A stretch of 32,000 bases of DNA from Candidatus Fokinia solitaria (GTDB lineage Bacteria > Pseudomonadota > Alphaproteobacteria > Rickettsiales > Midichloriaceae), in assembly GCF_003072485.1 (NCBI RefSeq), contig NZ_CP025989.1, positions 60,001 through 92,000 of the forward strand, given 5' to 3'. The notes beneath the pieces are model-generated. The model saw nothing but the letters and a program-made list of their open reading frames with translations, was not told the DNA's origin and made no database searches. This document shows, piece by piece, positions 1,111 through 24,042 of this stretch (positions are counted from its first letter, which is position 1; every line of letters starts with the position of its first letter). A program made the position numbers and the translations under genes.

Positions 1111-2811
1111 GTGATTAATAGAAACCAAAACACCGATACTCCTATCAAAAATGCATTAAGTGCAATACGCACGATGGTGTGGTATGCGATTCTTACAAGT
1201 AGTGCTTCTGCTGCTTTAAGTGTGTGGATCTCGTTTTTTAGTTTAAATGTGTTAGATAAAGCTATACCTAGTGGCAATCTCGATACTTTAGGCGCTTTTA
1301 CATTTCTAGTAATAGTCGCTTATCTTGTAAACAGTGCAATTACCGGTGGTAGAGCTTTCGTAATGAGTAAGATCTCTTCATGGTTTGAGTATAAGATTGC
1401 AGATGCAGTACTTCATAATGCGATAAAGACTTCACTCGTTGCAAAGAGTAATGCTGGTAGCCAAAGTATCAGAGATTTACAAACTCTTTGTAACTACATT
1501 GCATCAAATGCACCAGTGATGCTTATAGATGCACCTTGGTCGCTTGTATTTACTATAATACTTTTCCTCATACACCCTATGATGGGCACTTTGGCACTCA
1601 TAGGATCTATCGCGATAATTATAGTAGGTGTCGTGAATGAGAGATATACGAAGAAACTTGTGGAAAAGCATAATGAAAATTTTATCGCAAGTATGAAATA
1701 TGTAGATAATCTCACTAGAGGCGCAGAGGTGCTTGAATCTATGGGAATGTCAAGAAGAGGTGTAGAAATATGGCATAAGATTAATCTGAAAGTGAACGAA
1801 TCGAGGATAGATAATAGCAAAAGACAAGCTTTTGCCACAGAATTCAGCAAACTTGTACGTGGTATATTACAGGTGTTTACGACTTTAACAGGTGCTTATC
1901 TTGTAATTAAAGGCGAAATAACATCAGGTGCTATGATTACTGGCTCAACGTTGGTTAGTAAAGCGTTAGAACCATGGGGAAATGCATTAAATGCGGTGAA
2001 AAATGTGCTTAATGTGAAAAAAGCTTACGAAAGACTAAATAGTGGATTTAGAAGCTTTGTTCATGATGAGGAATTGATGCAAATGCCCGCTACTGAAGGA
2101 GTAGTTTCTATAGAAAATGTGTATTACGCACCGCATGGTAGTAATACGTACTTCATAAAGGCGATTAACATGCATATGAAGCCAGGACAAGTTTGCGCTT
2201 TGATTGGTCCTAGTGGCTCAGGAAAATCTACTCTTCTTTCGATCATTGCTGGCGCTAAAGAACCTGGACTTGGAATAGTAAGGATAGACGGTAGTGATAG
2301 AAAAAATCTTCGAAAAGAGGATTTAGGAAGTTCTATAGGATACTTACCTCAAGATGTACAGTTGCTTTCCGGTACTGTTAAAATGAATATCTCGAGGCTT
2401 GATGCTGATGCAAATTATGAAGATATCATACAAGCGGCACAGATAGTAGGTGCACATGAAATGATTACTCGTCTCCCTAATGGTTATGATACTGATGTTG
2501 GAGTGGATGGTAGTAATCTTTCTGGCGGACAGAAACAAGCAATAGGATTGGCGCGTGCATTCTATAAAATGCCTCAGATCGTATTGTTAGATGAAGCCGA
2601 AGCAAGTCTTGATGATTCAAGCAGGGTGAATCTTGTAACAGCTATAGAAGTACTAAAGGAACAAAAAGCTACCGTTGTACTTGTGACGCACAACCCTATG
2701 ATGCTTCAACTTGCTGATACTGTAGTGGTAATGAGAAGTGGCGAAATAGTGATGTCAGGACCTTATGCGGAAGTGACTAAAGCTCTGCAGCAAAAGCAGA
2801 AGATTCAGTAG
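1111..2811 (+). CDS. Type I secretion system ABC transporter (permease/ATPase), PrtD/AprD/HasD-like class without an N-terminal C39 or CLD domain
   Basis: 566-aa ORF with a GTG start. The hydrophobic transmembrane domain begins at about residue 20. The C-terminal NBD has Walker A GPSGSGKST, ABC signature LSGGQKQ and Walker B IVLLDEA. It ends 19 nt before a HlyD-family gene. Confidence 0.85.
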   Translation: MINRNQNTDTPIKNALSAIRTMVWYAILTSSASAALSVWISFFSLNVLDKAIPSGNLDTLGAFTFLVIVAYLVNSAITGGRAFVMSKISSWFEYKIADAVLHNAIKTSLVAKSNAGSQSIRDLQTLCNYIASNAPVMLIDAPWSLVFTIILFLIHPMMGTLALIGSIAIIIVGVVNERYTKKLVEKHNENFIASMKYVDNLTRGAEVLESMGMSRRGVEIWHKINLKVNESRIDNSKRQAFATEFSKLVRGILQVFTTLTGAYLVIKGEITSGAMITGSTLVSKALEPWGNALNAVKNVLNVKKAYERLNSGFRSFVHDEELMQMPATEGVVSIENVYYAPHGSNTYFIKAINMHMKPGQVCALIGPSGSGKSTLLSIIAGAKEPGLGIVRIDGSDRKNLRKEDLGSSIGYLPQDVQLLSGTVKMNISRLDADANYEDIIQAAQIVGAHEMITRLPNGYDTDVGVDGSNLSGGQKQAIGLARAFYKMPQIVLLDEAEASLDDSSRVNLVTAIEVLKEQKATVVLVTHNPMMLQLADTVVVMRSGEIVMSGPYAEVTKALQQKQKIQ

Positions 2812-2830
2812 TTATAATTACAATTTTCCT

Positions 2831-4447
2831 ATGAAGTATATGAAAAGATTTTTAAACTGGTTTTCGAGAAAATTCAGTACTTTTACCTCGTTTCTTGGTT
2901 ATAAGAAGCGAAAGAATGAAAGTGAGATAAAAGATGTTTCTCTTAGTAAAGAGGATGCAAATTCTAATGATGTAAAAAGTGCTCAGATTCAGCATCTTTT
3001 ATCACAGTTCTTACAGAGTGAACATAAATGTAAGAAAACTCTCAAAGATGGATGGAAGCTTATCCAATCATCTATTTGTGAAATTGTAGCTTTCCTTAAA
3101 GGTGAAGGTGGCGCAATTCCTGCGCTTCAGGAAAAAATAGACCAAAGTTTAAAAAGTGCTGTCAAAAAACCGATAAAGTTTGTAATGCTAGCATTGGCAA
3201 CGTTTTTTGTAATATTCATACTATGGGCAGGATTTGCCCCTATAGATAGTGCGGTAATTGCTAGAGGAGTATTAGTTTTAGAAAATAATAGAAAAAGCAT
3301 ACAACATCTAGAAGGAGGAGTCATAAAAACAATATTTGTCAAAGACGGGGATATAGTAAAGAAAGGCGATCCGATAATACAGCTGGAGGGCGCGAGTGTT
3401 GTATCAGATATGCAAGCAACTCTTTCTACTTTGAGATTTCACATAGCTACTGAAATACGTTTACTTGCTGAGCTGAATAAATATAAGACACTCAATTTTA
3501 ATAGTCCTGAGCTTGATCCTAGTGATCCAGAAGTGAAGGATATTATCGCTACTCAAATTCGAGTTTTTAATGCAAGAAAAGAAGATATGCAGGAAAAACT
3601 TGCACTTTTCGCAAGCGAAAAGAAAAGAAAATTAGATGAACTGAAAGAATATGAAAAACAGCTTGAAGTTAGCTCTAAGACTCTAAAGCTAGAAGAGCAG
3701 AAACTACAAGATGTAGAGAAATTGTCAGAATCTAAAATATTGTCAAAATTTCAGTTAAGCGATACACAAAGGATATATAATGAACATCTGAATGTAGTGA
3801 GTAAGCTGCGTGGCGCAGTTGCTGTGACTCAAGAAGAAGTGAAAAATAGCGATGTAAGAGTGGCAAGTTATTTAAAAGATACAGTCTCTAAAATCTCCGA
3901 TGAATATAAACAGAATCATCTCGAGCTTTTGCAGTTAAGAAGCAGATATCTGCAAGCTTTGGATCGTTATCAGAGATTGATTATTAGAGCGCCAGAAAGT
4001 GGCTTGGTTACTGGTCTTAGATATCATACCGAAGGCGGAGTGATATCTCATGCAGATAATACTATTGCAAGTATTATTAATCCTAATGACGATATAATCG
4101 TAGAAGCTTATATAATGCCGCAGGACTTAATTAGAGTGCAAGAAGGAATGAAGGCTAAAGTGCAACTTGAAGCAGAGAAGCAGCGTCTAGTACCTAAATT
4201 ACCTGCAGAAATCTTCTATGTTTCAGCAGATAGACAAGAGAGACCTCAGACTTCTCAGACCCTTCCTCCTGAATTCTATTTGGTGAAATTAAGAATACTT
4301 GGTGAAAAAGTAGAGTTCTTAGGTAGTGAAGTTGAGCTAAGGCCAGGAAAACCTGTCAGTGTGTACATAAGTAAAGGTGCAACTACCATGGCGAAGTACT
4401 TCCTTGGCGCTATATTGGATAGCATGAATAGAGCTATTGTAAGGTAA
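2831..4447 (+). CDS. Type I secretion membrane fusion protein, HlyD/AprE family
   Basis: 538-aa ORF with a single TM helix (FVMLALATFFVIFILWAGF, about residues 117-135). This is followed by the HlyD-type segment APIDSAVIARGVLVLENNRKSIQHLEGGVIKTIFVKDGDIVKKGDPIIQLE, a long K/E/L-rich coiled-coil region and a C-terminal beta domain. It lies immediately downstream of the T1SS ABC gene. Confidence 0.85.
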   Translation: MKYMKRFLNWFSRKFSTFTSFLGYKKRKNESEIKDVSLSKEDANSNDVKSAQIQHLLSQFLQSEHKCKKTLKDGWKLIQSSICEIVAFLKGEGGAIPALQEKIDQSLKSAVKKPIKFVMLALATFFVIFILWAGFAPIDSAVIARGVLVLENNRKSIQHLEGGVIKTIFVKDGDIVKKGDPIIQLEGASVVSDMQATLSTLRFHIATEIRLLAELNKYKTLNFNSPELDPSDPEVKDIIATQIRVFNARKEDMQEKLALFASEKKRKLDELKEYEKQLEVSSKTLKLEEQKLQDVEKLSESKILSKFQLSDTQRIYNEHLNVVSKLRGAVAVTQEEVKNSDVRVASYLKDTVSKISDEYKQNHLELLQLRSRYLQALDRYQRLIIRAPESGLVTGLRYHTEGGVISHADNTIASIINPNDDIIVEAYIMPQDLIRVQEGMKAKVQLEAEKQRLVPKLPAEIFYVSADRQERPQTSQTLPPEFYLVKLRILGEKVEFLGSEVELRPGKPVSVYISKGATTMAKYFLGAILDSMNRAIVR

Positions 4448-4465: not shown

Positions 4466-4502
4466 AAGTTTTCTGTTAGCAACGTTGCACTTCAGAAAAC
4501 TT
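4466..4502 (+). terminator. Inverted repeat / possible terminator after the T1SS operon
   Basis: aagttttctg (4466-4475) pairs perfectly with cagaaaactt (4493-4502). The loop contains the palindrome gcaacgttgc. A T-run (cttttt) follows only about 10 nt later, so this is not a textbook intrinsic terminator. Confidence 0.35.
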
Positions 4503-4862
4503 TCATCGTACTTTTTAGTAACGTTCTACAAGATTTAAGATAGAGGCCAATATGTGTAATATGAGTGCTATTGGTGCGAAGTAGCAGTTTAGCACGTTGA
4601 GGAATTGCGCTAAAAAAATCGTAACGCTATTGAGAGTTATGAAATAATCAAAGTTTACAATAAAACATATTGTTTATCTCAAAATGATTATTTTTTTTAT
4701 TTCGAGCTAAAAGATCGTAAATAGATATGTACGTATGTTGTTTTTGAATTTAGTGTTTGTGAGAAATAAAAAATATTGCCTTATTTATTACATGATATGC
4801 TAGTATATTGCATCGAGTTGTGCTACCCTTACGGAGGTATTTTATAAGCTAGTAACAGATTT

Positions 4863-5729
4863 ATGTCACATTCTTCCAATCTCGATTTGCACAGATTATT
4901 TGATGAATTTATTAGAAAATTGGAACTCAGTGTGAATTATGACGAAGATGGTGTTGATTTTTGGTATGCAAGAAAATTGCAAGAAATTCTTGAATATAAA
5001 GAATGGCTACTTTTTCAAGAGGTAATAAAAAAAGCAGCGTATGCTGCTTGTAGTGCTGGTATGGCAGTTGAGAAGAATTTCCAGGAAATCTTTACTGATA
5101 TTGAAGGTAAGAAGGAAAGTGATTATCGACTTACGAGATATGCATGCTACATGATAGCGCAAAATGCGGATGCTGGTAATAAGGCGATCGCTTTAGCACA
5201 AACTTACTTTGCTACATTAGTGAGAAAACAAGAGATAGAGCAAGAAAGAGAACAAGAAATAGAGCGTAGAGTGGAATTAAGAGAAATGTCAAAAAAAGAG
5301 AATAAGAAATTGACCAAAGCCGCAAAAAATGCAGGAGTCAGAAATTATGGAGCGTTTCAAAATGCAGGCTATCGAGGTCTATATAATGGTAAAACGTCAT
5401 CGGATATTGCGAAGTATAAAAAGTTACCTGAAAGTGCTACTATTCTCGATCATATGGGCAGTGAAGAACTTGGAGCAAATCTTTTTAGAATAACGCAAGC
5501 TACAGGCAAAATACAAAGAGAGAAGGTAAAAGGAGAGTCAGCAGCAAATAAGATTAATTATGACGCAGGATTGCTTGTTAGAGACACGATCGAAAAAATG
5601 GGAAATACTATGCCAGAAGATTTACCTACTGCAGAAAATATAAAAAAAATAGCGCAGCAGAAGAAGAAATTGCAAAAAGCTAATGATAAAGATTTTAAAA
5701 AAGTAGAAAAGAAAGAGCAGAGAAGCTAA
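4863..5729 (+). CDS. dinD: DNA-damage-inducible protein D (DinD) family protein
   Basis: 288-aa ORF. The N-terminal half has the DinD-family pattern GVDFWYARKLQEILEYKEW...RLTRYACYMIAQNADAGNKAIALAQTYFATLVRKQE. This matches my memory of E. coli-type DinD (LTRYACYLIAQNGD...AQTYFA). The C-terminal half is lysine-rich and low complexity. Confidence 0.7.
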   Translation: MSHSSNLDLHRLFDEFIRKLELSVNYDEDGVDFWYARKLQEILEYKEWLLFQEVIKKAAYAACSAGMAVEKNFQEIFTDIEGKKESDYRLTRYACYMIAQNADAGNKAIALAQTYFATLVRKQEIEQEREQEIERRVELREMSKKENKKLTKAAKNAGVRNYGAFQNAGYRGLYNGKTSSDIAKYKKLPESATILDHMGSEELGANLFRITQATGKIQREKVKGESAANKINYDAGLLVRDTIEKMGNTMPEDLPTAENIKKIAQQKKKLQKANDKDFKKVEKKEQRS

Positions 5730-6411
5730 ATGAAAATCAGGTAATTGAAGAAAGGTATATATGGATAGTGTTTTGGCTTATTATGCAAGATTTGATAGCT
5801 TTCACATTAGCATTCGGATTTTGAAAATAGATCATGTAGCGCTTTGTAGAGTTGCTACAGCAGTGTATTTAGTTTTGCTTTGCGCTGGTTTTATAGTTTT
5901 GTTATGGTTTTAAAAGTGAAATAAGCATGTTCATCACAAGATAGCAGTAGTTTTCATCGAGTAATGTTAATTAGATATGTTTTTTACTGATAACGTAGAA
6001 TATCAGGACTTACGAATTAGTTTTTACTATATTACATTTTGTGTCAGAGTTAGCATTAATCATTTTCGTATATCATTCACGTATTTAGCGCTTAAAATCC
6101 TCGAATAGTGCTGAAGTTTCTGCTAGAAAACGTTAAAGAGGCAAGTAGAAGAAATCGTACCTCTACTCTACATAAAATTGCCTCGAGACACCACGCAACA
6201 TACAAATATACTTATGAATACATGCGCAAAACTCTGCTTGTACTTCTTTCCTGTAATGAATCCTCAGTTGACGTTTTGAAAGAATAGCATCTCAAGATGC
6301 AAGAGTAAAAAGCATACCATTCAAACAGCGATCGCATACAGAATTGAAAAAGCTGAACTTCTTTAAATTTTTGATATGCTACTAAGAATGATGCGATTCT
6401 ATAAGATTTTT

Positions 6412-6717
6412 CTACCAACTTGCTTTTCTTACGCCAGGTAATAGTCCTTTAGTTGCCAAATCTCTAAGACATATTCTTGAGAGCATAAAATGTCTATATA
6501 CTCCTCTTCCTCTGCCAGTAATTGCACAGCGTACACGCACTCTAGTATTACTGCCATCTCTAGGCATAGAGTTCAATTTTATTTGCGCTTTGAATCTTTC
6601 TTCGACAGATCTGTTGGTATCTCTAACAATGTCTTTTAACTCTTTTCTTGCTGAAGAATACTTAGCGACCATTTTCTTACGCTTCTCATTTCTTGCTATC
6701 ACGCTTTGCTTTGCCAT
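6412..6717 (-). CDS. rpsN: 30S ribosomal protein S14 (long, non-zinc C-minus form)
   Basis: 101 aa: [20 protein letters not shown]...[43 protein letters not shown]. The S14 C-terminal signature ends in KASW, and there is no CxxC pair. Confidence 0.93.
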
Positions 6718-11065: not shown

Positions 11066-11827
11066 GTGATTTCTTATCGTTTACTGCTGTGTACACTGTT
11101 TGTTCTCGTAGCGTGGTGCACTGCTGCTGCTGAGGTACAGAATGATAAGTTTATATTTTCAATATATGGCGCTGCTTCTAATAGTACTGCAGTCGACGTG
11201 ACTTATACTAAGGATAGCGCCGCAAAGTTTTCTAATATTTCTTCCGGATTATCTCCACGTATTGGTGTGCAGATTGGAGGCCTTCTTTGTAAGAGAGGTC
11301 ATATTGGTATTGATGCATCATATGCACGTAGTCTCTATGCTAATTCTGAATTTTCGATATCTCAGAACTCGATCGCGATAGCAGGGTATGGTACAGGTTA
11401 TTTTCCTCTAAAGAGTGAGTACTATCTCCTATTAGGTGGTTTTTACGGTTTTGAATATAGTATTTTCGAGCAGCAGGATAATGGCTTTTGGAATGATACA
11501 ATTGCTTTGCAATTCGGAGGAGGAAAAACATTTAATAAGATAAGAATAGAATTTTTTATCAATGCTAGAGGTATAAGTTACGACAATGTGGTATTTATAC
11601 CGCAGAAGTTGAATAATAATTTGGCTCAAGACAGTATTGTGATGCCAGAATCAGCGGCACGTGTAAGTGATATCACAAAGTATGATGCAAGTACAAATGT
11701 CGTTCACAATAAACCAACTTTATATCTGTTACTCAATCAAGAAGAGACAAAGAACACTAGTATCACCGATTTACGTCCAAGTAATAGTGCGATAGAATAC
11801 GGATTGCGTCTAAGCACTACTTTTTGA
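11066..11827 (+). CDS. Putative outer-membrane beta-barrel protein
   Basis: 253 aa with a GTG start. The signal peptide is MISYRLLLCTLFVLVAWCTAAAEV. It has alternating beta-strand-like segments and a C-terminal ...YGLRLSTTF ending in Phe, the classical OMP C-terminal signature. Confidence 0.55.
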   Translation: MISYRLLLCTLFVLVAWCTAAAEVQNDKFIFSIYGAASNSTAVDVTYTKDSAAKFSNISSGLSPRIGVQIGGLLCKRGHIGIDASYARSLYANSEFSISQNSIAIAGYGTGYFPLKSEYYLLLGGFYGFEYSIFEQQDNGFWNDTIALQFGGGKTFNKIRIEFFINARGISYDNVVFIPQKLNNNLAQDSIVMPESAARVSDITKYDASTNVVHNKPTLYLLLNQEETKNTSITDLRPSNSAIEYGLRLSTTF

Positions 11828-14403: not shown

Positions 14404-15438
14404 TTAAAAATCCAAATTTTTATCTGTAGAATGCAATAATTCTTTGAGTAGCATAAGTAAAAATGACGCTAGAGGTATTGCGAGTAGTATGCCTAATATA
14501 TTGCCGAATTTTGCGAATACGAGAACGGAAAATATAGTAATAATTGGATGTAATCCGAGTTTCGTCCCTATTACGTTTCTTAAGAAGATGAAATTTAGAA
14601 CAGAATATCCAGTGAAGAAGAGTAGTAATCCTAAGATTTTAATTCCAATTCCGAATTTAGCTATAGCGACTATAAAGATGCAAGAATACATGAGAATACC
14701 TCCGATATATGGAATATAATTAGAAATCGCTGCTACAATCGACAATTTTAATGCGCTGTCGATACCGAAAATGCAAAGCGCTGCATACGTAGCAGAGCCA
14801 TGAATAAAGGATAAAGTAGTATATAAGGAGAAATATTTTATTAAGATTCCGCGTCCGTTATCTCCGATTTTTTTGAGTAGAATAATTTTTTGCGGAGAGA
14901 ATATCTTTGATGTTAGCAATCTGTACGTATTTGCCTCTTTCATGGCGTAGTATGACGTAAACGGCACTATACAGATAAATAGTCCGAATGATATAGCATT
15001 GAGCCAGGATATCTGAAATACATCATATATAAGCTTTGTATAATGTCCTATATTGAGATTTGACATCACTTTATCAATGTACATGCCGTCCGCTGTCATG
15101 GCAGTGCTTTCAATAATTGATTTGATATCATCAAGGTACGATGTAAAATATGCATCTTTATTGCTGACTGCATTATGTATTATGCTGATACCTGCCATTA
15201 TCCCCCAGATGATTATTGCCCAGAAAAGCAGCACTATAATCGTGCTTAGTGCAGCCGATATTAGCGCTGCTATGTTTTTATTGCGCAGCCGCTTTGCTAA
15301 CGGCAAATAAAATGGAAGAGTGATGTATCCGAGTGCGCCTCCATATATGAAAGGTTTTGTTATGTCATTCATGAGACTTATGCATATAATTAACATTATA
15401 ACAATGAGATATATACTTTCTTTCTGTTTGATGCTCAT
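14404..15438 (-). CDS. AI-2E family transporter (PerM-like permease)
   Basis: 344-aa polytopic membrane protein with about 7-8 hydrophobic segments. The ...NYIPYIGGIL... motif is typical of the UPF0118/AI-2E family. Confidence 0.7.
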   Translation of the reverse strand: MSIKQKESIYLIVIMLIICISLMNDITKPFIYGGALGYITLPFYLPLAKRLRNKNIAALISAALSTIIVLLFWAIIIWGIMAGISIIHNAVSNKDAYFTSYLDDIKSIIESTAMTADGMYIDKVMSNLNIGHYTKLIYDVFQISWLNAISFGLFICIVPFTSYYAMKEANTYRLLTSKIFSPQKIILLKKIGDNGRGILIKYFSLYTTLSFIHGSATYAALCIFGIDSALKLSIVAAISNYIPYIGGILMYSCIFIVAIAKFGIGIKILGLLLFFTGYSVLNFIFLRNVIGTKLGLHPIITIFSVLVFAKFGNILGILLAIPLASFLLMLLKELLHSTDKNLDF

Positions 15439-15516: not shown

Positions 15517-16242
15517 ATGAAATATTCTACTGTCATTGCCAAATGTTTTTTGTGTTGCTTTCTTGTTTTTAAAAGTGTTTTCGCTTTAGGAGTAGAGGAA
15601 TTGAGAATAGGAACAGAAGGTATGTATCCTCCATTTGAGTTCTATAAGAATGGAGAAATTACAGGATTTGACATAGAGCTAGCGAAGTTGATTGCGCAAC
15701 AACTCGAAATGAAGTGCGTATTCGTGGATATGGCTTTCAGTAGTCTCTTTCCCGCTGTAAATGTAGGAAAAATCGATATGGCAATTGCTACAATAACAGC
15801 TTCAGCAGCAAAAAGAAAAAACTTCGCATTTTCTGATTCTTATCATAAGGATGAAATAGGCATGCTGTATATCAGTGATAAAATAAGCAAAAAAGAAGAT
15901 CTATCAGGAAAGATTATAGGAGTGCAATTCGGTAGTACTGCTAATGTCGCATGGGTTAACGAGAACTGTAAAGATACAAAGATAATCTATATGGATAATA
16001 GCAATATGTTGGTAGAAGCACTGCAAGCTAAACGTCTTGACGCTGTGATTGTTGATGCGCCGCAAGCAAAGTATTTTGCTAAAAATAATAAGCTGAAATG
16101 GAAGCTTTTAGGTACTTTATCTGACGGTTATAGGATAGTAATGAAAAAGGATTCGAAATTACTTCCTAGAGTGAATGATGCATTAAAGACACTTATTAGT
16201 AGTGGAGCAGTCGATAAACTCAAGAAGAAATGGGAATTATAG
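15517..16242 (+). CDS. Amino-acid ABC transporter substrate-binding protein (family 3 SBP, GlnH/ArtJ-like)
   Basis: The ORF track begins at a TTG (15442). The ATG at 15517 gives a clean signal peptide, MKYSTVIAKCFLCCFLVFKSVFALG. The mature part reads LRIGTEGMYPPFEFYKNGEITGFDIELAKLIAQ..., typical of polar amino-acid SBPs. No cognate permease or ATPase is adjacent. Confidence 0.8.
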   Translation: MKYSTVIAKCFLCCFLVFKSVFALGVEELRIGTEGMYPPFEFYKNGEITGFDIELAKLIAQQLEMKCVFVDMAFSSLFPAVNVGKIDMAIATITASAAKRKNFAFSDSYHKDEIGMLYISDKISKKEDLSGKIIGVQFGSTANVAWVNENCKDTKIIYMDNSNMLVEALQAKRLDAVIVDAPQAKYFAKNNKLKWKLLGTLSDGYRIVMKKDSKLLPRVNDALKTLISSGAVDKLKKKWEL

Positions 16243-16497
16243 TATTTTTCATTATCTGTATCATGTCCGTTGAGAAAAGTTTCATGAGATGATTGTCGAG
16301 TGCTTGTATCCTGTTGGATTAACTGCTTGAAAAGCACTTCAAGTTCTTATGAGAAGCGCTATAAATACTAATGCTGATATTTGCCTCTTAGAGAAAAAGA
16401 TTCAATTCACTCACTCTTCAGAGAATTAATATCATAAGAGAGGAAGGCTCATTCTGTAGAACTGACAGCTGATATCAAGCAATATTTGATAATTTAT

Positions 16498-16519
16498 TTA
16501 AGCACTTATTGGTGCTTAA
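16498..16519. terminator. Stem-loop between convergent genes
   Basis: ttaagcac (16498-16505) and gtgcttaa (16512-16519) form an 8-bp perfect stem with a 6-nt loop. It lies in the 465-bp gap between the convergent SBP and ABC exporter genes. There is no strong T-tract. Confidence 0.3.
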
Positions 16520-16707
16520 TTCGCCAACAATCAAAATGAAATACAATACTTCACTCCCTACGCCCTGTATAAAGAAGCTTTGTTCACGGGCAAATCCTCG
16601 CTTAAATTTGTTCGATGTAAAAACGTTAAGACGTACTGCATATTCGTACTAAAGCGAATGAAATGAAGAGTGATATCGATTCACTATAGTATTCAGCTAC
16701 TGACGCA

Positions 16708-18546
16708 TCATACTTTTGATACTCCTCCTCTTGAGTAGTACATTTCCCACAAATAGGAATAATGTCCGTTCTTAGCCATTAGTTGCTCGTGTGTACCATC
16801 TTCAACAATTTTCCCTTCATTAAAAACGAGTATCCGATCTATATGCTGCAGTGTGGAAAGTTTATGCGCTATCATAATAACGGTTTTATTTTTCATTAAC
16901 ATTTTCAATGCTTCTTGAATTTTCTTATCGGTGGTAGAATCAAGTGACGATGTGCATTCGTCCATAATTAGTATTGGCGCATTTTGTATCAGCGTTCTTG
17001 CTATGCCTATTCTCTGTTTTTGCCCTCCAGAGATGGAAAATCCTTTCTCTCCGATTATTGTATCATAGCCGTTTTCCAAAGAGGTGATGAATTCATGACA
17101 TTGGCTTAATTTAGCACTTTCTTCCACTTTATCGAATGGTATGTTGTGATTACAATACGCTATGTTATCGCGAATACTTCTGTTAAATAACATCACTTCT
17201 TGCGGCATTATGCTGATTAATTGACTTAGCTCTCTAGGAGAGTACTCTTCGATTTTTTTACTTCCTATTAAAAGTTCTCCACCATGTTTCTTGTAAAATC
17301 CGATAATGAGATTTACGAAGCTTGTTTTACCACTGCCAGAAGTACCTACTAATCCTACTCTTTCTCCTTGTTTGATGACTACAGATAAATCGGAAAATAG
17401 CACTTTGCTGTCATGATACCCGAATGTGACCTTATCGAATACCAAAGTATGATCGCTTTGATGCTGATGAGATATATCATCTTCTTGAGAGAGAAATTCT
17501 TCATGAGTACTATATAAGACTACATGTTCTACTAGTACATCTTCGCGTACATTTTCCGTTACGACATTAATACTCTGTTTTGCACGTCCAGCTTCCAAAA
17601 GAGTATAAGTGATTTCATCTGCAACAAACCACATTGTACTCATTATATTCATGCTATTTTGCACGATGAAGATTACATCTCCTGTCGATATTATATCTGC
17701 TGTCCACATTTTCGCAGCTACAAAAAAGAGGAAACTTACGCTAATAATGCTGATGCTTCCTAAGCATAGTTTGACTAGTTCTATATTAATCAACGAATAT
17801 CTGCTTGCTCTCATTTCATCTCCTTGTATTTTGCTTATATATCTCATTTCATGATGTTGTTTTGAGAGAGCTCTGATTATGAAATTATTCATTATTGTAT
17901 CTAGAATAGCAGCTTGTACTCTGCTGCGTTTCTGTGATGCAGTTTGCGTTAGTCTTACGGAGCGCTTAGAAAGTACCACCATTACTACAATGTATATTGA
18001 AAGCCATGCGATAAACATGGACGATAGTATTGGATGTACGTCGAATAAAAACAGCGATGACAATATGATCGAGATGATAACGGGGATAAATAAGTTTGTT
18101 ATGTTATCAAAGATCATGTAAAGGCTGCGCGGTAAGTCATCTATCCGATAACTGAATGCATTCAATTTTTGCCTGTCAAGAAAATGTTCGTGCTCATGCT
18201 TCAGTACGCTTTTAAGGCATGATAATCTGATATCTGCTTCGAATTTTGGAATAAAATGAGATGATGTGAGACCTTTTGTTCTGCTAATTGCTTCTAGTAT
18301 GATCCAAAAACCTATACCTACACCTAAACTTTGGAAAAAAATACGCGTATCGTGTGTTTTATCAGAAATATCATTTAATATATCAACTAATTTTCCTGTG
18401 ATGTACGGTAATACGACATTGTGAGATAAATTACACAATATGCCAGTGCTTAATATAAGAAATGCACTAAGAAAATGTCGTCTGAGAAAGAACTGCAAAA
18501 ATCCGAATACGGTTTTTGGAAGTGGAATATTATTACGTGTAGTCAT
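16708..18546 (-). CDS. ABC exporter, fused permease/ATPase (MsbA / multidrug-type)
   Basis: 612 aa. The N-terminal domain is a 6-TM type. The NBD has Walker A GTSGSGKTS, signature ISGGQKQR and Walker B ILIMDECTSSLD. Confidence 0.85.
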   Translation of the reverse strand: MTTRNNIPLPKTVFGFLQFFLRRHFLSAFLILSTGILCNLSHNVVLPYITGKLVDILNDISDKTHDTRIFFQSLGVGIGFWIILEAISRTKGLTSSHFIPKFEADIRLSCLKSVLKHEHEHFLDRQKLNAFSYRIDDLPRSLYMIFDNITNLFIPVIISIILSSLFLFDVHPILSSMFIAWLSIYIVVMVVLSKRSVRLTQTASQKRSRVQAAILDTIMNNFIIRALSKQHHEMRYISKIQGDEMRASRYSLINIELVKLCLGSISIISVSFLFFVAAKMWTADIISTGDVIFIVQNSMNIMSTMWFVADEITYTLLEAGRAKQSINVVTENVREDVLVEHVVLYSTHEEFLSQEDDISHQHQSDHTLVFDKVTFGYHDSKVLFSDLSVVIKQGERVGLVGTSGSGKTSFVNLIIGFYKKHGGELLIGSKKIEEYSPRELSQLISIMPQEVMLFNRSIRDNIAYCNHNIPFDKVEESAKLSQCHEFITSLENGYDTIIGEKGFSISGGQKQRIGIARTLIQNAPILIMDECTSSLDSTTDKKIQEALKMLMKNKTVIMIAHKLSTLQHIDRILVFNEGKIVEDGTHEQLMAKNGHYSYLWEMYYSRGGVSKV

Positions 18547-18660: not shown

Positions 18661-19110
18661 ATGAGTATCGAGAGCAATAACATGATATCATGCACAAAGA
18701 AGATAGAGTTTGATGCAGCACATAGAATTATTGATCACCATGGCGCGTGTAAAATGTTGCATGGACATCGTTATGTTATAGAGGTAACTTTTTCGAAATT
18801 TCTCAAGGATTTTACTAATCACGACATGGTAATCGATTTTATCATCATAAAGCAAAAATTAGATAGTTGGATAAAACAGCACTGGGATCATAATACGATA
18901 CTTTCCGAACAAGACAAAGATCTCGGTAATTCTATTGAAAAGTGCACTTCTCAGACGATTTTTTACTTGAAAAAGCAGCCTACTGCAGAAAATATGGCGA
19001 TATTCTTGATGCAAGAGATTATACCTGTGCTTTTTGACGAATATGGCGTAAAATGTACGAGATTGAGATTAAGAGAAACACCATCATCATTTGTCGAGGT
19101 ATTGATGTAA
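18661..19110 (+). CDS. queD: 6-carboxy-5,6,7,8-tetrahydropterin synthase / 6-pyruvoyl-tetrahydropterin synthase family
   Basis: 149 aa. KIEFDAAHRI..H.GACKMLHGHRYVIEVTF is the PTPS/QueD zinc-binding His motif. Confidence 0.85.
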   Translation: MSIESNNMISCTKKIEFDAAHRIIDHHGACKMLHGHRYVIEVTFSKFLKDFTNHDMVIDFIIIKQKLDSWIKQHWDHNTILSEQDKDLGNSIEKCTSQTIFYLKKQPTAENMAIFLMQEIIPVLFDEYGVKCTRLRLRETPSSFVEVLM

Positions 19111-19382
19111 TAAGCTTATCCAGCTGTTCTTGTTTTTATTATTAATATTATTTGTCTTTTATTACAGCGTAGATATTGAGCCATAATTTGACATCCAATT
19201 TGCATCTAGAATTCTATTGGAAGCGATATATTGCTGGCTTTACAGCAATTACCGCAGCTGTAGGAAAGTAGATGAACTTTTTATTTTAGAGAAAGGTATA
19301 TATACTCTACCGTCGATTGAGCTCATAATTTTAATATTTTATGAAAAATCAATCGATCGTTAAATAAATAATATATAATCCT

Positions 19383-20633
19383 ATGAACAATATTACCATA
19401 GCGAATAATTCTTTCATATCAATATATCGTTCGTGTTTGAAGCACGCTCTAACATTACAGGAATGTGTTACCGATATTATGTCAAAAGAATTGAAATCGT
19501 TGTATAATGGTGCGATACAAAACTTATCTAGAATATCGTACGCTATAGACATCAAAACAGATGAATCGCCTGAGCTAGATGCGGAATACATCCAGATGTT
19601 AAATAAAACAGCATTGCGCAATCAAACTCTTTATTTCTTCAAATCTGAAGCGCTGCTTGCGCATGAAAAAATGATGAGAGAACACATTGAAATTATGCAA
19701 GACATGGATGATCAATATGAGGAGATGATTCACCTTCGTACTCTTATTGCACATGGTAACGATATGCTACCGCCTATACGAGCAGAGCAAAAAGAAATGA
19801 GAAGTAATATATATGATTCAGACGATAAGATACAAACTCTAAAGATGATGAAGCCAGTGCTGTATAATGCTGCGTTATACGTGATCCATACGAAAGAAGT
19901 AGCGCCTACAGCGAAAGATTATCGTCTTTTACAGCATGATATGCTTATAGCTGAAAAACTAAATGAGATGCAAATTAAAGAGAAATATGCTGAAAAATTT
20001 ACTGATGCAGATACTTTTATAAAAGAGCACTATGGCAAAGTAGAGGAGTTGCAGGACATTATATCTCATCTTCTAGGTAAGTCCGAAGTCATGATACTTA
20101 CATATCACTCAATGCGTAAGATTCATGAAGAATTAGCAGCGGAGAATATGATGCTTCTGCAATTGAGAATAAAAGAGCAAGTTATGCGGACGCAGCTGAA
20201 AGCTATAGAAAAGGAATATTCTGATATATATGCATTTATTGTAAAAAGTATAGATCTTAAATACACTGGTATATTAGGTGAAATGCACGAACTCTCGGAA
20301 TACATGATAGATTTGCTTTTTGGTACATCTGTTAATACGACGAAAGATGCAGTGATATATAATGTATCCTCGACAGAGTACGAGCAAGCGCCTCTTTCCT
20401 TCTTATCTAAGAGAACGAATGTAGTAAATGATATGCAAGCTGAGCACATACAAGATTCTGTAAATGATACGCAAGCTAAGCACCTACAAGATTTTGTAAA
20501 TGATACACAGGATGAACAGTTATCAGATGATGTACAGAATGAATCTTTAGCAAACTCTGCAGATAACATTAGTTATGAAGAATCAGAATTTAATGATGCA
20601 TCATCTAACATTGCTATGCATAATGATCTGTAA
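19383..20633 (+). CDS. Hypothetical protein, tandem paralog 1 of 3 (helical, with an acidic repeat-bearing C-terminus)
   Basis: 416-aa ORF with no signal peptide, TM segment or enzyme motif that I can recognise. It is rich in E/K/L/M/Q heptad-like stretches. The C-terminus has 3 x 12-aa repeats (VNDMQAEHIQDS / VNDTQAKHLQDF / VNDTQDEQLSDD). Coding status is supported by conservation of the frame across three diverged copies. Confidence 0.8.
   Translation: MNNITIANNSFISIYRSCLKHALTLQECVTDIMSKELKSLYNGAIQNLSRISYAIDIKTDESPELDAEYIQMLNKTALRNQTLYFFKSEALLAHEKMMREHIEIMQDMDDQYEEMIHLRTLIAHGNDMLPPIRAEQKEMRSNIYDSDDKIQTLKMMKPVLYNAALYVIHTKEVAPTAKDYRLLQHDMLIAEKLNEMQIKEKYAEKFTDADTFIKEHYGKVEELQDIISHLLGKSEVMILTYHSMRKIHEELAAENMMLLQLRIKEQVMRTQLKAIEKEYSDIYAFIVKSIDLKYTGILGEMHELSEYMIDLLFGTSVNTTKDAVIYNVSSTEYEQAPLSFLSKRTNVVNDMQAEHIQDSVNDTQAKHLQDFVNDTQDEQLSDDVQNESLANSADNISYEESEFNDASSNIAMHNDL
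20424..20531 (+). repeat. 3 x 36-bp in-frame tandem repeat inside paralog 1
   Basis: The three units are gtaaatgatatgcaagctgagcacatacaagattct, gtaaatgatacgcaagctaagcacctacaagatttt and gtaaatgatacacaggatgaacagttatcagatgat. A degenerate fourth unit occupies 20532-20567. Confidence 0.9.
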
Positions 20634-20821
20634 GAAATAGCAAAGATTCACATACGTCAATTATCGATAGCACACTTTTGCAGCTAATTCTTACAGCTGT
20701 AAGGAAGTAAATTAACTTTTCCTCCAGAGGAGCGCATACATGATAATTGACGATCGATCACGCAATTTTGGTATTTGATAAAAAAATCGATCAATTAATT
20801 GAATAAATAATATATAATCCT

Positions 20822-22072
20822 ATGAATAATATTACTATAGCGAATAATTCTTTCTTATTGATGAATGATACATGTATAAGGTATAGTTTATCATTACAAG
20901 AATGTGTCACTGATATTGTGTCAAAAGAATTGGAATCGTTGTATGATGATGCAGTGCGAAACTTCTCTAGAATGTCGCGTACTATAGGTATCAAAACAGA
21001 TGAATCACCTGAGCTAAATGCGCAATACATTCAGATGTTAAATAAAACAGCGTTACGCAATCAAACTCTTTATTTCTTCAAATCTGAAGCGCTGCTTGCG
21101 CATGAAAAAATGATGAGAGAACACATTATATTAATGTATGATGTAGAGAAGCAGTATAAGGAAATTACTCATCTTCGTGCCATTGTTACGCATGGTAACG
21201 ATCTGTTACGGCATATACGAGCAGAGCAAAAAGAAATGAGAAGTAATATATATGATTCAGACGATAAGATACAAACTCTAAAGATGATGAAGCCAGTGTT
21301 GTATAATGCTGCGTTATACGTGATCCATACGAAAGAAGTAGCGCCTACAGCGAAAGATTATCGTCTTTTACAGCATGATATGCTTATAGCTGACAAGCTA
21401 TATGAGATGCAAATCAAAGAGAAATATGCTGAAAAATTTACTGATATGGATACTCTTATAAAAGAGCACTATAGCAAAGTAGAGGAGTTGCAGGACATTA
21501 TATCTCGTCTCTTAGATGATTCCGAAGTCATGATACTTACATATCACTCAATGTGTAAGATTCATGAAGAATTAGCAGCGGAGAATATGATGCTTCTGCA
21601 ATTAAAAATAGAAGAGCAAGTTATGCAGATGCAACTTGAGACAGTAGAAAAAGAGTACTCTGATGTATATGCATTTATCGTAAAGAGTGTAAATCTTCAA
21701 TATACTGGTATATTAAGTAGAATGTATGAATTGTTGCGATACATGGAAGATTTGCTTTTTGGTACGTCTATCAAAACGATAGAAGACGCAACAGTACATA
21801 ATACATCCTCGACAGAATACGAGCAAGTGCCTCCTTTCCTCTTATTTTGGGGAACGAATGTAGTAAATGATATGCAAGCTGAGCACATACAAGATTCTGT
21901 AAATGATATGCAAGCTAAGCACCTACAAGATTTTGTAAATGATACACAGGATGAACAGTTATCAGATGATGTACAGAATGAATCTTTAGCAAACTCTGCA
22001 GATAACATTAGTTATGAAGAATCAGAATTTAATGATGCATCATCTAACATTGCTATGCATAATGATCTGTAA
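20822..22072 (+). CDS. Hypothetical protein, tandem paralog 2 of 3
   Basis: 416-aa ORF, collinear with paralog 1 and with no net length change. Long blocks are nearly identical at nucleotide level to paralog 1, and other blocks are closer to paralog 3. Confidence 0.8.
   Translation: MNNITIANNSFLLMNDTCIRYSLSLQECVTDIVSKELESLYDDAVRNFSRMSRTIGIKTDESPELNAQYIQMLNKTALRNQTLYFFKSEALLAHEKMMREHIILMYDVEKQYKEITHLRAIVTHGNDLLRHIRAEQKEMRSNIYDSDDKIQTLKMMKPVLYNAALYVIHTKEVAPTAKDYRLLQHDMLIADKLYEMQIKEKYAEKFTDMDTLIKEHYSKVEELQDIISRLLDDSEVMILTYHSMCKIHEELAAENMMLLQLKIEEQVMQMQLETVEKEYSDVYAFIVKSVNLQYTGILSRMYELLRYMEDLLFGTSIKTIEDATVHNTSSTEYEQVPPFLLFWGTNVVNDMQAEHIQDSVNDMQAKHLQDFVNDTQDEQLSDDVQNESLANSADNISYEESEFNDASSNIAMHNDL
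21863..21970 (+). repeat. 3 x 36-bp in-frame tandem repeat inside paralog 2
   Basis: Same position and sequence as the paralog 1 repeat, with one substitution (VNDMQAK instead of VNDTQAK). Confidence 0.9.
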
Positions 22073-22119
22073 GAAATAGCAAAGATTCACATACGTCAAT
22101 TATTGACAGCACACGTCTT

Positions 22120-22149
22120 CATGTCGGTACTTTAAATCGTACTGACATG
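22120..22149 (+). terminator. Stem-loop downstream of paralog 2 (possible terminator)
   Basis: catgtcggtac (22120-22130) pairs with gtactgacatg (22139-22149). The stem is 11 bp including one G:U pair, with an 8-nt loop, and is followed by cagatctgatttt. Confidence 0.4.
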
Positions 22150-22303
22150 CAGATCTGATTTTGTAGCTAATTCTTGCAGTTGTAGGGAAGTAAATTGACT
22201 TTTTCTCCAGAGGAACGCATACATGATCATTGACGATCGATCACGCAATTTTGGTATTTGATAAAAAATCGATCAATTAATTAGAGAAATAATATATAAT
22301 CCT

Positions 22304-23497
22304 ATGACTAATATTACTATAGCCAACTATTCTTTCGTATCGGTATATAATACATGCATGAAGTATAATTTGACATTACAAAAATGCGTTATCGATATCA
22401 CATCAAAAGAATTGAAATCGTTGTATAATGGCGCGACACAAAACTTGTCCATAATGTCACGTACTATAGGTATTAAAACAAATGAATCACCTGAGCTAGA
22501 CGCGGAATACATCCAGATGTTAAATAAAACAGCGTTACGCAATCAAACTCTTTATTTCCTAAAATCTGAAACTCTGCTTACGTACGAAAAAATGATGAGA
22601 GAACACATTACGTTAATGTATGATGCGGAAGATCAGTATAAGGAAATTACTCATCTTCGTACCATTGTTACGTATGGTAACGATATGCTACAGAATATAC
22701 GTGCAGAGCAAAAAGAAATGAGAAGTAATATATATAACTCAAATGATAAAATACAAACTCTAAAGATGGTGAAGCCAGTGCTCTATAATGCTGCATTATA
22801 TGCGCTTCATACGAAAAAAACAGGACCTACAGAGAGAGATTATTACTTTCTACAGCATGATGAGATCATGATGAACATACTCGAGGAAATGAAGATTAAA
22901 GAGAAATATGCTGAAAAATTTACTGATGTTAATACTCTTACAAAAGAACATTACAGTAAGGTAATGGAGTTACAAGGTATCATACATCACCTTCTAACAC
23001 TCCCTCCTATTATGATATTGATATATGATTCAATGTGTAAAATTCATGAAGAATTAGCAGTAGAGAGTATGACGCTTCTGCAATTAAAAATAAAAGAGCA
23101 AGTTATGCGGATGCAACTGACAGCTATAGAGAAGGAATATTCTGATGTGTATGCACTTACTATAAAGAGTGCAGATCTTAAGTACAATGGTATATTAGGT
23201 GACGTACATGAATTCTCAGAGCATATAGTACATCTTCTTTTGCAGCCTATTATGAATGTTAATGCGTACGGCAAAATGGCGAAGGAAGCTATAGTAGATA
23301 TGCTTTCAACAAAATCAACAGAACACGAGAAAGCGCATAATGCTTCTCTTTTAGTAAATAAGACAGATGAAGTAAACGACATGCAAACTAAACATCTGCA
23401 AAATGTCACAAATGATAGCAGTCATGACGCATTAAATTATGAAGAATCAGCACTTAATGATACGTCATCTAACGTTACTATGCATAATGAACTGTAA
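22304..23497 (+). CDS. Hypothetical protein, tandem paralog 3 of 3 (most diverged, with a shorter repeat tail)
   Basis: 397-aa ORF, collinear with paralogs 1 and 2 over about 330 aa. The C-terminal region differs and retains only about 1.5 copies of the 12-aa repeat (VNDMQTKHLQN VTNDSSHD). It has the same terminal motif, ..NYEES.LND.SSN..MHNEL. Confidence 0.8.
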   Translation: MTNITIANYSFVSVYNTCMKYNLTLQKCVIDITSKELKSLYNGATQNLSIMSRTIGIKTNESPELDAEYIQMLNKTALRNQTLYFLKSETLLTYEKMMREHITLMYDAEDQYKEITHLRTIVTYGNDMLQNIRAEQKEMRSNIYNSNDKIQTLKMVKPVLYNAALYALHTKKTGPTERDYYFLQHDEIMMNILEEMKIKEKYAEKFTDVNTLTKEHYSKVMELQGIIHHLLTLPPIMILIYDSMCKIHEELAVESMTLLQLKIKEQVMRMQLTAIEKEYSDVYALTIKSADLKYNGILGDVHEFSEHIVHLLLQPIMNVNAYGKMAKEAIVDMLSTKSTEHEKAHNASLLVNKTDEVNDMQTKHLQNVTNDSSHDALNYEESALNDTSSNVTMHNEL

Positions 23498-23544
23498 GAA
23501 ATAGCAAAGATTCACATACGTCAATTATTGACAGCACACGTCTT

Positions 23545-23574
23545 CATGTCGGTACTTTAAATTGTACTGACATG
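23545..23574 (+). terminator. Stem-loop downstream of paralog 3 (possible terminator of the array)
   Basis: Same 11-bp stem as at 22120-22149: catgtcggtac (23545-23555) and gtactgacatg (23564-23574). A tttttt run follows at 23583-23588. Confidence 0.45.
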
Positions 23575-23880
23575 TAGATACGTTTTTTCCGTTATTTCTC
23601 CACAATTTTAAAAAGCAAATAGAGAGATACACTTACTTGTTATACCGATAATTGAAGAGGTAATGCACCGTAGCTTTCTGTGATTAGCTTCCGTCTCGCC
23701 GAATGATAGAGAAAGATGTTAAATGTGCGGTATTTCTCGATTTTTTTTTACGTATCACTTCTGCGCTTTGATACTAAGTTTGAAGCTGCGTGCTTTTGAG
23801 GAGAATGTATGAGCGAGTTTCGATAAGACTACTGTTGCTATACAAAAGTGTAATGAAATAAGTAGTAAAACTACTAAAGG

Positions 23881-23956
23881 TGGTGGAGGCAAACGGATTC
23901 GAACCGATGACCCTCTGCTTGCAAAGCAGATGCTCTACCAACTGAGCTATGCCCCC
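23881..23956 (-). tRNA. tRNA-Ala (anticodon UGC)
   Basis: The reverse complement folds by hand as GGGGGCA TA GCTC AGTTGGTA GAGC A TCTGC TTTGCAA GCAGA GGGTC ATCGG TTCGAAT CCGTT TGCCTCC ACCA. It has the G3:U70 Ala identity pair, anticodon TGC, an encoded CCA and a length of 76 nt. Confidence 0.93.
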
Positions 23957-23967
23957 ATTCTGCATTT

Positions 23968-24042
23968 TGGAGCAGGCGAAGGGAATCGAACCCTCGACTT
24001 CAACCTTGGCAAGGTTGCGCTCTACCACTGAGCCACGCCTGC
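23968..24042 (-). tRNA. tRNA-Gly (anticodon GCC)
   Basis: The reverse complement folds as GCAGGCG TG GCTC AGTGGTA GAGC G CAACC TTGCCAA GGTTG AAGTC GAGGG TTCGATT CCCTT CGCCTGC TCCA. It is 75 nt with an encoded CCA, and lies 11 nt upstream of tRNA-Ala on the same strand. Confidence 0.93.

Follow-up and report, generated by a model that had tools for sequence, protein, structure and literature searches.

To our knowledge, almost no host-interaction factors have been experimentally defined in protist-associated Rickettsiales. In the Anaplasmataceae, the msp2/p44 and omp-1/p28 arrays are made up of head-to-tail paralogues whose products are signal-peptide-bearing β-barrel outer-membrane proteins, and they comprise expression sites and donor cassettes. 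Effectors of the VirB/D4-type (rvh) T4SS carry a positively charged C-terminal translocation signal, as in Agrobacterium and Anaplasma. A further reference is provided by TRP32, TRP47, TRP75 and TRP120 of Ehrlichia, which are type I secretion system (T1SS) effectors with acidic tandem repeats (PMC3417381, PMC10225607); T1SS substrates generally have an acidic pI and contain few cysteines or none (PMC10225607), and both features are found in the proteins described below.

Here, we analyzed a 32,000-nt stretch (hereafter, the window) of the genome of Candidatus Fokinia solitaria (Midichloriaceae), an endosymbiont of Paramecium, in which three plus-strand ORFs annotated as hypothetical, Fsol_00080 to Fsol_00082, form a tandem array. 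The first-pass annotation had proposed a triplication at 19250-23575 with ATGs at 19383, 20822 and 22304, as well as a conserved upstream block and a conserved 3' flank in every unit, and both proposals were confirmed. A repeat finder returned three head-to-tail copies with start-to-start distances of 1439 and 1482 nt, that is, units of approximately 1.44-1.48 kb each consisting of its own upstream block, a coding sequence (CDS) and a 42-nt 3' flank, while alignment placed the bounds of the repeat at ~19238 and ~23575. The upstream motif AATAATATATAATCCTATG occurs exactly three times, vs. 0.04 occurrences expected by chance, the 19 nt preceding each ATG are identical in all copies, and GAAATAGCAAAGATTCACATACGTCAATTA follows the stop codon in each of the three.

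The upstream block of copy 1 (19238..19382, plus strand), a presumed promoter/leader recognised by alignment and by an exact 19-mer found three times, has homologous counterparts in the right-hand portions of both inter-copy junctions. It precedes a CDS of 416 aa (Fsol_00080, 19383..20633, plus strand) and the conserved 42-nt 3' flank (20634..20675, plus strand), after which no hairpin was detected (fold z-score +0.37). Copy 2 comprises an upstream block in which the palindrome ATCGAT occurs twice, at 20753 and at 20786 (20676..20821, plus strand), a mosaic CDS of 416 aa (Fsol_00081, 20822..22072, plus strand) and a hairpin segment of 43-44 nt (22115..22158, plus strand; core 22120-22149, -21 kcal/mol, z -5.9) followed by a weak U4 run. 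In copy 3, the upstream block (22159..22303, plus strand; ATCGAT palindromes at 22236 and 22268) is followed by the most divergent CDS, of 397 aa and with a shorter repeat tail (Fsol_00082, 22304..23497, plus strand). Strong hairpins are thus present 3' of copies 2 and 3 only, and that of copy 3 (23540..23588, plus strand; core 23545-23574, -20.7 kcal/mol, z -5.7), with a U6 run 3 nt later, is likely the intrinsic terminator of the array. A consensus promoter/terminator scanner returned nothing specific, and an Rfam scan detected tRNAs only. The lack of a Shine-Dalgarno sequence upstream of the copies, already remarked on in the first-pass annotation, was observed but is nothing special, as only 1 of 24 window genes has one.

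The comparison across relatives suggested at that stage was carried out with one sister genome, that of F. crypta, which blastn showed to be collinear with the window on both sides of the array. The left anchor, queD (18661..19110, plus strand), shares 81% amino acid identity with its F. crypta orthologue, and the right anchor (23881..24042, minus strand), formed by tRNA-Ala(UGC) at 23881-23956 and tRNA-Gly(GCC) at 23968-24042, is the same pair in both species. Between them, blastn against the F. crypta locus delimited an F. solitaria-specific segment from the queD stop to tRNA-Ala (19101..23878, plus strand), in which the array is bordered by non-repeated flanks at 19111-19237 and 23591-23878. 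The spacer measures 4,778 nt in F. solitaria vs. 90 nt in F. crypta. Over 28 kb, just three indels interrupt the collinearity of the two genomes, and the present locus is one of them. The array is absent from the F. crypta locus, and neither there nor elsewhere in the window was a fourth copy or fragment detected.

The encoded family, described in the first-pass annotation as unrecognisable, has remained so. An HMMER profile run against 1.84 billion representative proteins retrieved only the three array proteins. When 5.8 billion cluster representatives (~15 billion proteins) were searched twice with a word filter, once at E <= 10, only self matches were obtained; the protein database searched included the F. 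crypta proteome, as its HtpG was recovered at 87% identity. Scans of the three proteins against Pfam, NCBIfam, PHROGs and PADLOC gave nothing significant, the best sub-threshold family matches being DUF4649 (E 0.006) and asnA (E 0.005), both far below the cut-offs. A PDB profile search yielded a single match, to a GCN4-fusion chain (E 0.06). Likewise, no match came from genome, metagenome or viral contigs, which were scanned by pattern plus tblastn, or from plasmids and phages, which were queried by tblastn. A contig search with the neighbouring ABC exporter led to unrelated bacteria only, the sister genome having been found via HtpG. An F. crypta orphan of 261 aa was considered as a relative and rejected (hhalign probability 0.1%). 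Judged by sequence comparison, the family is a true orphan with no homologue beyond F. solitaria in the databases searched; the housekeeping relationship that would have weakened the original proposal did not emerge from Pfam, NCBIfam, PDB or the protein databases. Since no homologue was found and the syntenic F. crypta spacer is only 90 nt long, the array can be regarded as species-specific. The accompanying statement that all other genes in the window can be assigned was mostly true, but the ORF at 11066-11827 had no family match.

At the protein level, copy 2 shares 80% and copy 3 shares 60-66% identity with copy 1. The three proteins have a pI of 4.74-5.75, 2-3 cysteines each and 1.2-2.0% glycine. 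As previously claimed, no signal peptide or transmembrane (TM) helix was detected in them, the maximal 19-residue Kyte-Doolittle hydropathy being 0.87-1.47; the first 10 residues contain no K or R, and the maximal 10-residue hydropathy within the first 40 is 0.99-1.27. The acidic repeat tail is also real: a 36-bp (12-aa) unit, VNDxQxxHxQDx, is repeated three times in copy 1 (20424..20534) and in copy 2 (21863-21973) and ~1.3 times in copy 3 (~23372-23443), all on the plus strand. The C-terminal 50 residues, which contain no K or R in copies 1 and 2, carry a net charge of -13 in these two copies and -7 in copy 3, vs. 0.4 ± 3.6 in 21 other window proteins. The AlphaFold modelling that had been called for, performed with AlphaFold2, gave no usable structure, with pLDDT values of 34.5 for the full length and 41 for a 276-residue core; the models are all-helical at low confidence, and the proteins are probably mainly α-helical. 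Coiled-coil character, which had also been proposed, did not hold up in a crude home-made test of heptad (a/d) periodicity, where the best 28-residue contrast (0.70-0.75) fell below the 95th percentile of shuffled sequences (0.72-0.78).

With regard to export, the window contains a T1SS gene pair (1111..4447, plus strand) encoding an ABC permease/ATPase (1111-2811; TIGR01842, 527 bits, cut-off 510) and an HlyD-family adaptor (2831-4447; TIGR01843, 288 bits, cut-off 209). The pair is a candidate export route only: it lies 15 kb upstream, has no physical linkage to the array and is also conserved in F. crypta, where the array is absent. A composition heuristic for T1SS substrates looks for C-terminal 50 residues that are rich in LDAVTSIF and poor in KHPMWC. 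The LDAVTSIF content of the array proteins (0.56-0.60) does not separate them from housekeeping proteins (0.55 ± 0.09 in 21 others); for KHPMWC, the values are 0.06 (copies 1 and 2) and 0.14 (copy 3), with a background of 0.18 ± 0.07. The array proteins have no match to the RTX nonapeptide patterns GG.G.D or G.G.D, and searches of the protein databases, PDB, NCBIfam and Pfam linked them to no known TRP or RTX protein. Further, their C-termini carry a negative charge and not the positive charge of the T4SS effector signal, and, with no signal peptide and low-confidence all-helical models, they do not resemble Sec-dependent β-barrel surface proteins. An MsbA-like ABC exporter encoded at 16708-18546 was considered as a dedicated transporter and rejected, scoring below every T1SS cut-off.

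An effector or surface role, as put forward in the first-pass annotation, is suggested only by analogy, and that the array encodes exported host-interface proteins is a reading that we favour tentatively, with less than even confidence. According to this model, each copy would be transcribed from its own duplicated upstream block, with copy 1, lacking a terminator, probably being read through into copy 2. The products would be acidic and largely α-helical proteins lacking a Sec signal and ending in an extremely acidic, lysine- and arginine-free tail with 12-aa repeats. They would most likely be exported without cleavage via the T1SS whose ABC and adaptor genes share the window, and might then act at the bacterium-host interface of a vacuole-free cytosolic symbiont. 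F. solitaria is found naked in the cytoplasm of its host and shows a fibrillar rim and a 'tail' (PMC4701390), whereas F. crypta/cryptica resides within a vacuole (PMC5118934), a contrast that covers two species, which differ at further loci too. It is a long shot that the array is the factor behind the naked lifestyle of F. solitaria in the Paramecium cortex, with its ribosome-free fibrillar rim and trailing 'tail'; here, an acidic helical protein with a new fold, arisen or acquired after the split and exported without a leader, would serve in the fibrillar coat or in vacuole escape/autophagy evasion, and amplification and conversion would tune its dosage and variability.

Much of the same evidence would also suit a lineage-specific helical protein that stays in the cytoplasm in a structural, regulatory or chaperone-like capacity, has no direct contact with the host and has had its dosage raised by amplification. 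The lack of a signal peptide or TM segment, of a discriminating secretion signal and of linked secretion genes, together with purifying selection on the helical core, is in line with such a role. However, a new cytoplasmic function gained in one of two sister species with a shrinking genome, and then triplicated, would be unusual, the dN/dS of the array is 2- to 10-fold that of the housekeeping genes nearby, and a repeat tail of such extreme acidity is seen more typically in proteins that are exported or act at an interface. We consider the cytoplasmic alternative somewhat doubtful.

The position of the array had been taken as a classic neighbourhood for acquired DNA, and 383 nt indeed separate the stop codon of copy 3 from the tRNA-Ala 3' end (23881, minus strand). 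Lineage-specific DNA at this tRNA is borne out by the comparison with F. crypta, but an integrase, a tRNA-derived repeat and a clearly foreign composition are all missing. The segment between queD and tRNA-Ala holds just the three paralogues and no integrase, and no tRNA-Ala/tRNA-Gly fragment that could represent an att direct repeat flanks it. GC (0.34-0.35 vs. 0.36) and GC3 (0.31-0.32 vs. 0.30) are native-like, and the relative synonymous codon usage (RSCU) distance of 0.47-0.50 is ~1 sd from the background of 0.39 ± 0.11. The tetranucleotide correlation of the segment (0.909) is the lowest in the window, in part because of the threefold repeat. That the array is degraded mobile-element cargo or a horizontal transfer beside tRNA-Ala, largely neutral and with no role in symbiosis, would fit the insertion relative to the sister species next to a tRNA 3' end, the k-mer deviation and the slightly shifted codon usage. 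It is nevertheless unlikely in view of the native-like GC and GC3 and the missing integrase and direct repeat, and also because no PHROGs, PADLOC, phage, plasmid or viral-contig match was obtained and dN/dS is clearly below 1.

In this base composition (35% GC genome), an open frame of ~400 codons has a chance probability of 3e-14, and none of the three frames is interrupted. Among the copies, there is an excess of synonymous over non-synonymous differences (z = 4.3-8.1), with dN/dS values of 0.33-0.46 overall and ~0.1 in core segments. This substitution pattern shows three real genes under purifying selection, all of whose ORFs have been kept open; it also explains the antisense ORFs at 20123-20569, 21697-22008 and 23044-23409, which were rejected as genes. 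For comparison, the 14 flanking F. solitaria/F. crypta orthologue pairs for which a value could be calculated gave dN/dS values of 0.03-0.24, all below those of the array (the UPF0102 pair was left out, as saturated pS gave no value), so that by this measure the array evolves fast relative to its neighbours. The elevated ratio, the loss of repeat units in copy 3 and a variable linker with indels at codons 300-345 could be expected of redundant duplicates heading towards pseudogenisation in a family that is no longer functional. This outcome is decidedly improbable, however, given three intact frames of such length, the low dN/dS of the core and the invariant 19 nt before each ATG. In the last 24 codons, dN (0.28) and dS (0.30) between copies 1/2 and copy 3 are roughly equal, and for this reason conversion, and not selection acting on a signal, may account for the C-terminal similarity.

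The copies differ at 12-25% of nucleotides, in addition to indels and distinct junctions. The most recent gene-conversion tract identified by the runs test (plus strand) joins 20401..20664 in copy 1 with 21840-22103 in copy 2; the two differ at 1 of 264 nt there, whereas 38 sites, in addition to indels, set copy 3 apart. At their 5' ends, copies 1 and 2 are ~20% different (dS ~0.5). Copy 2 is a mosaic, its upstream block grouping with copy 3 and its 3' two-thirds with copy 1, and the runs test was significant (P <= 1e-4) for the tract linking copies 1 and 2 as well as for that linking copies 2 and 3. The repeat units, which are in register, and the mosaic signal show that one gene, together with its presumed promoter/leader block and hairpin terminator, was amplified to three by unequal homologous recombination and that conversion between them is ongoing. 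Although the published assembly contains manual joins (PMC5905368) and exact-protein look-ups yielded no independent F. solitaria assembly, the 12-25% nucleotide difference with distinct junctions, the indels, the uneven presence of the hairpin and a longest near-identical stretch of 264 nt, far shorter than PacBio reads, make it very unlikely indeed that misassembly turned a single-copy gene into a triplication.

The array is a clean example of a reduced genome (837 kb) that is still gaining and expanding new genes. By analogy, it is a good, albeit unproven, candidate host-interaction factor, and it offers a concrete and cheap first experimental target because it is species-specific, selected, amplified and evolving in concert, and distinguishes sister species that live free in the cytosol or enclosed in a vacuole. 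Should the gene prove to be non-exported or silent, the array would be an ordinary cluster of orphan paralogues.

Among known systems, the Ehrlichia TRPs resemble the array proteins in being acidic, lacking a signal peptide, having few cysteines and acidic tandem repeats, and being lineage-restricted in a genome that encodes a type I secretion ABC transporter and adaptor. There is, however, no sequence similarity, the array proteins are putative export substrates that the C-terminal composition heuristic does not set apart, and their repeats are just three units of 12 aa at the end of a ~330-aa non-repetitive helical body encoded by tandem genes. The msp2/p44 and omp-1/p28 arrays share with the present one the head-to-tail arrangement of paralogues, a reduced Rickettsiales genome and mosaics shaped by recombination, but the F. 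solitaria array has three complete genes with their own upstream blocks, and its products have no signal peptide and are predicted to be helical. Similarly, tRNA-adjacent genomic islands also represent extra DNA abutting a tRNA 3' end relative to a sister genome, whereas the array is a 4.8 kb segment with one amplified gene, devoid of integrase, att repeat and clearly foreign composition. Finally, the array proteins have in common with the orphan (taxonomically restricted) genes of endosymbionts their restriction to a single species, fast evolution and low AlphaFold confidence. In contrast to those genes, the array is triplicated, has conserved regulatory flanks and has undergone concerted evolution, which argues for a selected function rather than annotation noise.

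Three tandem paralogous ORFs between queD and tRNA-Ala make up the array: copy 1 at 19383-20633 (416 aa), copy 2 at 20822-22072 (416 aa) and copy 3 at 22304-23497 (397 aa). A protein search matched them at 100% identity to Fsol_00080, Fsol_00081 and Fsol_00082, hypothetical proteins of Candidatus Fokinia solitaria, a Midichloriaceae (Rickettsiales) endosymbiont of Paramecium whose 837,348-bp genome was assembled from PacBio and Illumina data; the main text of the genome paper does not mention the locus (PMC5905368). The three copies were found in register by a repeat finder, with spacings of 1439 and 1482 nt. Alignment of the four non-coding segments delimited a repeat unit comprising an upstream block of ~145 nt, the CDS and a conserved 3' flank of 42 nt, the repeats extending from ~19238 to ~23575. 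In line with the first-pass annotation, the triplication was therefore borne out, including its upstream block, 3' flank and acidic tail. The 19 nt directly before the ATG are invariant in all copies (0.04 chance matches expected). A hairpin-forming segment of 43–44 nt (−21 kcal/mol, z about −5.8 upon folding) lies 3' of copies 2 and 3 and is missing 3' of copy 1; the copy 3 hairpin is followed 3 nt on by a U6 run, and the two together look like an intrinsic terminator. The tRNA-Ala end is located 383 nt past the copy 3 stop.

Five ATCGAT palindromes (19352, 20753, 20786, 22236 and 22268) were also observed in the three ~145-nt upstream blocks, compared to ~0.2 expected from the window-wide density, those of copies 2 and 3 forming pairs 32–33 nt apart. 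The palindromes were copied by duplication, hence they are not independent of each other; they could be part of an operator or promoter. As had been noticed initially, no Shine-Dalgarno sequence precedes the array genes. This is not a special property of the array, since the motif was detected in only one of 24 window genes (14404-15438, minus strand; 25 nt upstream scanned), and translation initiation in F. solitaria therefore seems largely independent of such sequences.

Copies 1–3 are real genes. An open frame of 416 codons would arise by chance with P ~3e-14 at the local base composition, and synonymous differences exceeded non-synonymous ones in all three copy pairs (z = 4.3, 8.1 and 7.4). 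The dN/dS values were 0.46 for copies 1/2, 0.33 for copies 1/3 and 0.36 for copies 2/3, with ~0.1 in the most conserved core segments (e.g. codons 61–100), while in the last 24 codons dN roughly equalled dS between divergent copies. Each paralogue also harbours a Cys/Ser-rich antisense ORF of 103–148 aa (20123-20569, 21697-22008 and 23044-23409, minus strand); these are most likely artefacts of sense-strand codon bias. By eye, copies 1 and 2 differ by an apparent compensated +1/−1 frameshift within ~7 nt (APLSFL vs. VPPFLL; copy 1 20385-20412, copy 2 21824-21851) in the variable linker that precedes the repeats, suggesting weak constraint on this linker.

The proposed orphan status of the family was upheld by profile, protein, contig, plasmid and phage searches. 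No credible match to the array proteins was found in Pfam, NCBIfam, PHROGs, PADLOC or PDB profiles, nor to the family among 1.84 billion representative proteins (full HMMER profile search), nor among 5.8 billion cluster representatives standing for ~15 billion proteins (word-filtered search, performed twice, once at E <= 10). The family was likewise not retrieved from plasmids, from phages or from contigs of genomic, metagenomic or viral origin, and further paralogues were found neither in the annotated F. solitaria proteome nor elsewhere in the window.

The best match to the window HtpG, an orthologue at 87% identity, lies on a contig of 815,586 bp from Candidatus Fokinia crypta (name since corrected from F. 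cryptica); the next-best matches reach only 46–47%. Across 28 kb, the window and the matching F. crypta locus (L005) were collinear (76–82% nucleotide identity), with three exceptions. Firstly, the 4,778 nt containing the array and its flanks (19101-23878) correspond to 90 nt in F. crypta, where tRNA-Ala lies ~82 nt after the queD stop. The array is therefore missing at the syntenic site. The DNA beside tRNA-Ala is lineage-specific, which supports this part of the initial reading. No F. crypta protein resembled the array proteins, its proteome being within the searched database. Secondly, window 4448-6412, another indel specific to F. solitaria (1,965 nt; 697 nt in F. crypta), carries a homologue of DNA-damage-inducible protein D (DinD; ORF 4863-5729; PRK11525, 257 bits, cut-off 242). 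Thirdly, 483 non-coding nt (16242-16724) are matched in F. crypta by an orphan ORF of 261 aa (L005 7119-7904, minus strand), flanked by an MsbA-like ABC exporter and an amino-acid-binding protein. Its product has an acidic, proline-rich C-terminus and no Pfam match, and is not related to the array family (hhalign probability 0.1%). Another ORF, 11066-11827 (253 aa), without Pfam or NCBIfam match, is kept in F. crypta (56% amino acid identity, dN/dS 0.24) and is a genus-level orphan, contradicting the view that every other window gene was assignable.

With regard to the suggestion of a tRNA-associated island, position alone among mobile-island features fits the array segment. Neither an integrase within it, nor flanking fragments of either tRNA, nor phage or plasmid matches were found, and GC, GC3 and codon usage were within ~1 sd of neighbouring genes. 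The tetranucleotide correlation was low (0.909), in part an effect of the threefold repetition.

Divergence along the repeat unit was strongly heterogeneous among the copies. Copies 1 and 2 differ at one of 264 nt from the last 54 codons into the 3' flank, and share 97–99% identity over codons 141–200 and 91–94% over codons 181–260; elsewhere identity was only 77–83%, and dS at the 5' end was ~0.5. Copy 2 sides with copy 3 in its upstream block (31 of the 37 informative sites within the first 100 columns) and with copy 1 in its 3' two-thirds, both tract types being significant in a Sawyer-type runs test (P <= 1e-4). This mosaic would be the product expected of unequal crossing-over in an older pair, yielding a chimeric middle copy, and of later conversion tracts; at least one conversion event is very recent. 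Orthologues of F. solitaria and F. crypta showed dS values of 0.73–2.9 (median ~1.4) and dN/dS of 0.03–0.24 (14 of 15 pairs calculable). Paralogue dS was 0.23 for copies 1/2 and 0.63–0.67 for either against copy 3, reaching 1–1.7 in the least homogenised windows. Judged by these values, the duplications are no older than the species split. Gain of the first copy in F. solitaria is favoured over its loss in F. crypta because the family is absent everywhere else.

The array proteins have a pI of 4.7–5.8, 2–3 Cys, 5.5–6% Met (background 2.5%), 1.2–2% Gly (5.3%) and 1.2–1.5% Pro (2.3%), and neither a hydrophobic segment near TM values nor a signal-peptide-like N-terminus was detected. AlphaFold2 returned helices only, in unusable models (pLDDT 34.5 full length, 41 core), and the coiled-coil character proposed initially gave no significant signal in a heptad test. 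The tail is a 12-aa acidic repeat, with three units in copies 1/2 and ~1.3 in copy 3. The last 50 residues of copies 1/2 are free of Lys/Arg, and their net charge is −13 (−7 in copy 3), vs. a mean of 0.4 +/- 3.6 in 21 other window proteins.

The array is thus a species-specific gene under selection, amplified in tandem together with its regulatory flanks and evolving concertedly; its product may be exported and act on the host. VirB/D4-type secretion signals are basic, and the acidic Lys/Arg-free C-terminus argues against such a signal. Substrates of type I secretion systems (T1SS) are generally acidic in pI, poor in cysteine and repeat-bearing, and have a C-terminal signal that is not cleaved off (PMC3417381, PMC10225607); the array proteins share the first three of these features. 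Two genes side by side at 1111-4447 of the window encode a PrtD/AprD-type T1SS ABC permease/ATPase (527 bits; curated cut-off 510) and an HlyD-family adaptor (288 bits; curated cut-off 209). The case for export is weakened by the 15-kb distance of this pair from the array and by its retention in F. crypta (81% nucleotide identity). It is further weakened by the LDAVTSIF heuristic, which did not separate the array proteins from housekeeping proteins, by the lack of RTX motifs in them, and by the near-parity of dN and dS at the C-terminus.

F. solitaria occurs naked in the cortex of its host, with a ribosome-free rim of fine fibrils and a trailing 'tail', and is often caught in autolysosomes (PMC4701390), while a symbiontophorous vacuole invariably surrounds F. 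crypta, which has no halo (PMC5118934). The array is among the gene-content differences that track the naked vs. vacuolar lifestyle, a correlation of two species that yields a testable hypothesis. The interpretation in the first-pass annotation holds in part; by analogy, the putative effector role that it suggested is plausible. As far as the searches reach, the protein family is entirely new; the kind of locus is familiar, namely a lineage-restricted, tandem-amplified family of an obligate intracellular bacterium, with a putative role in host interaction.
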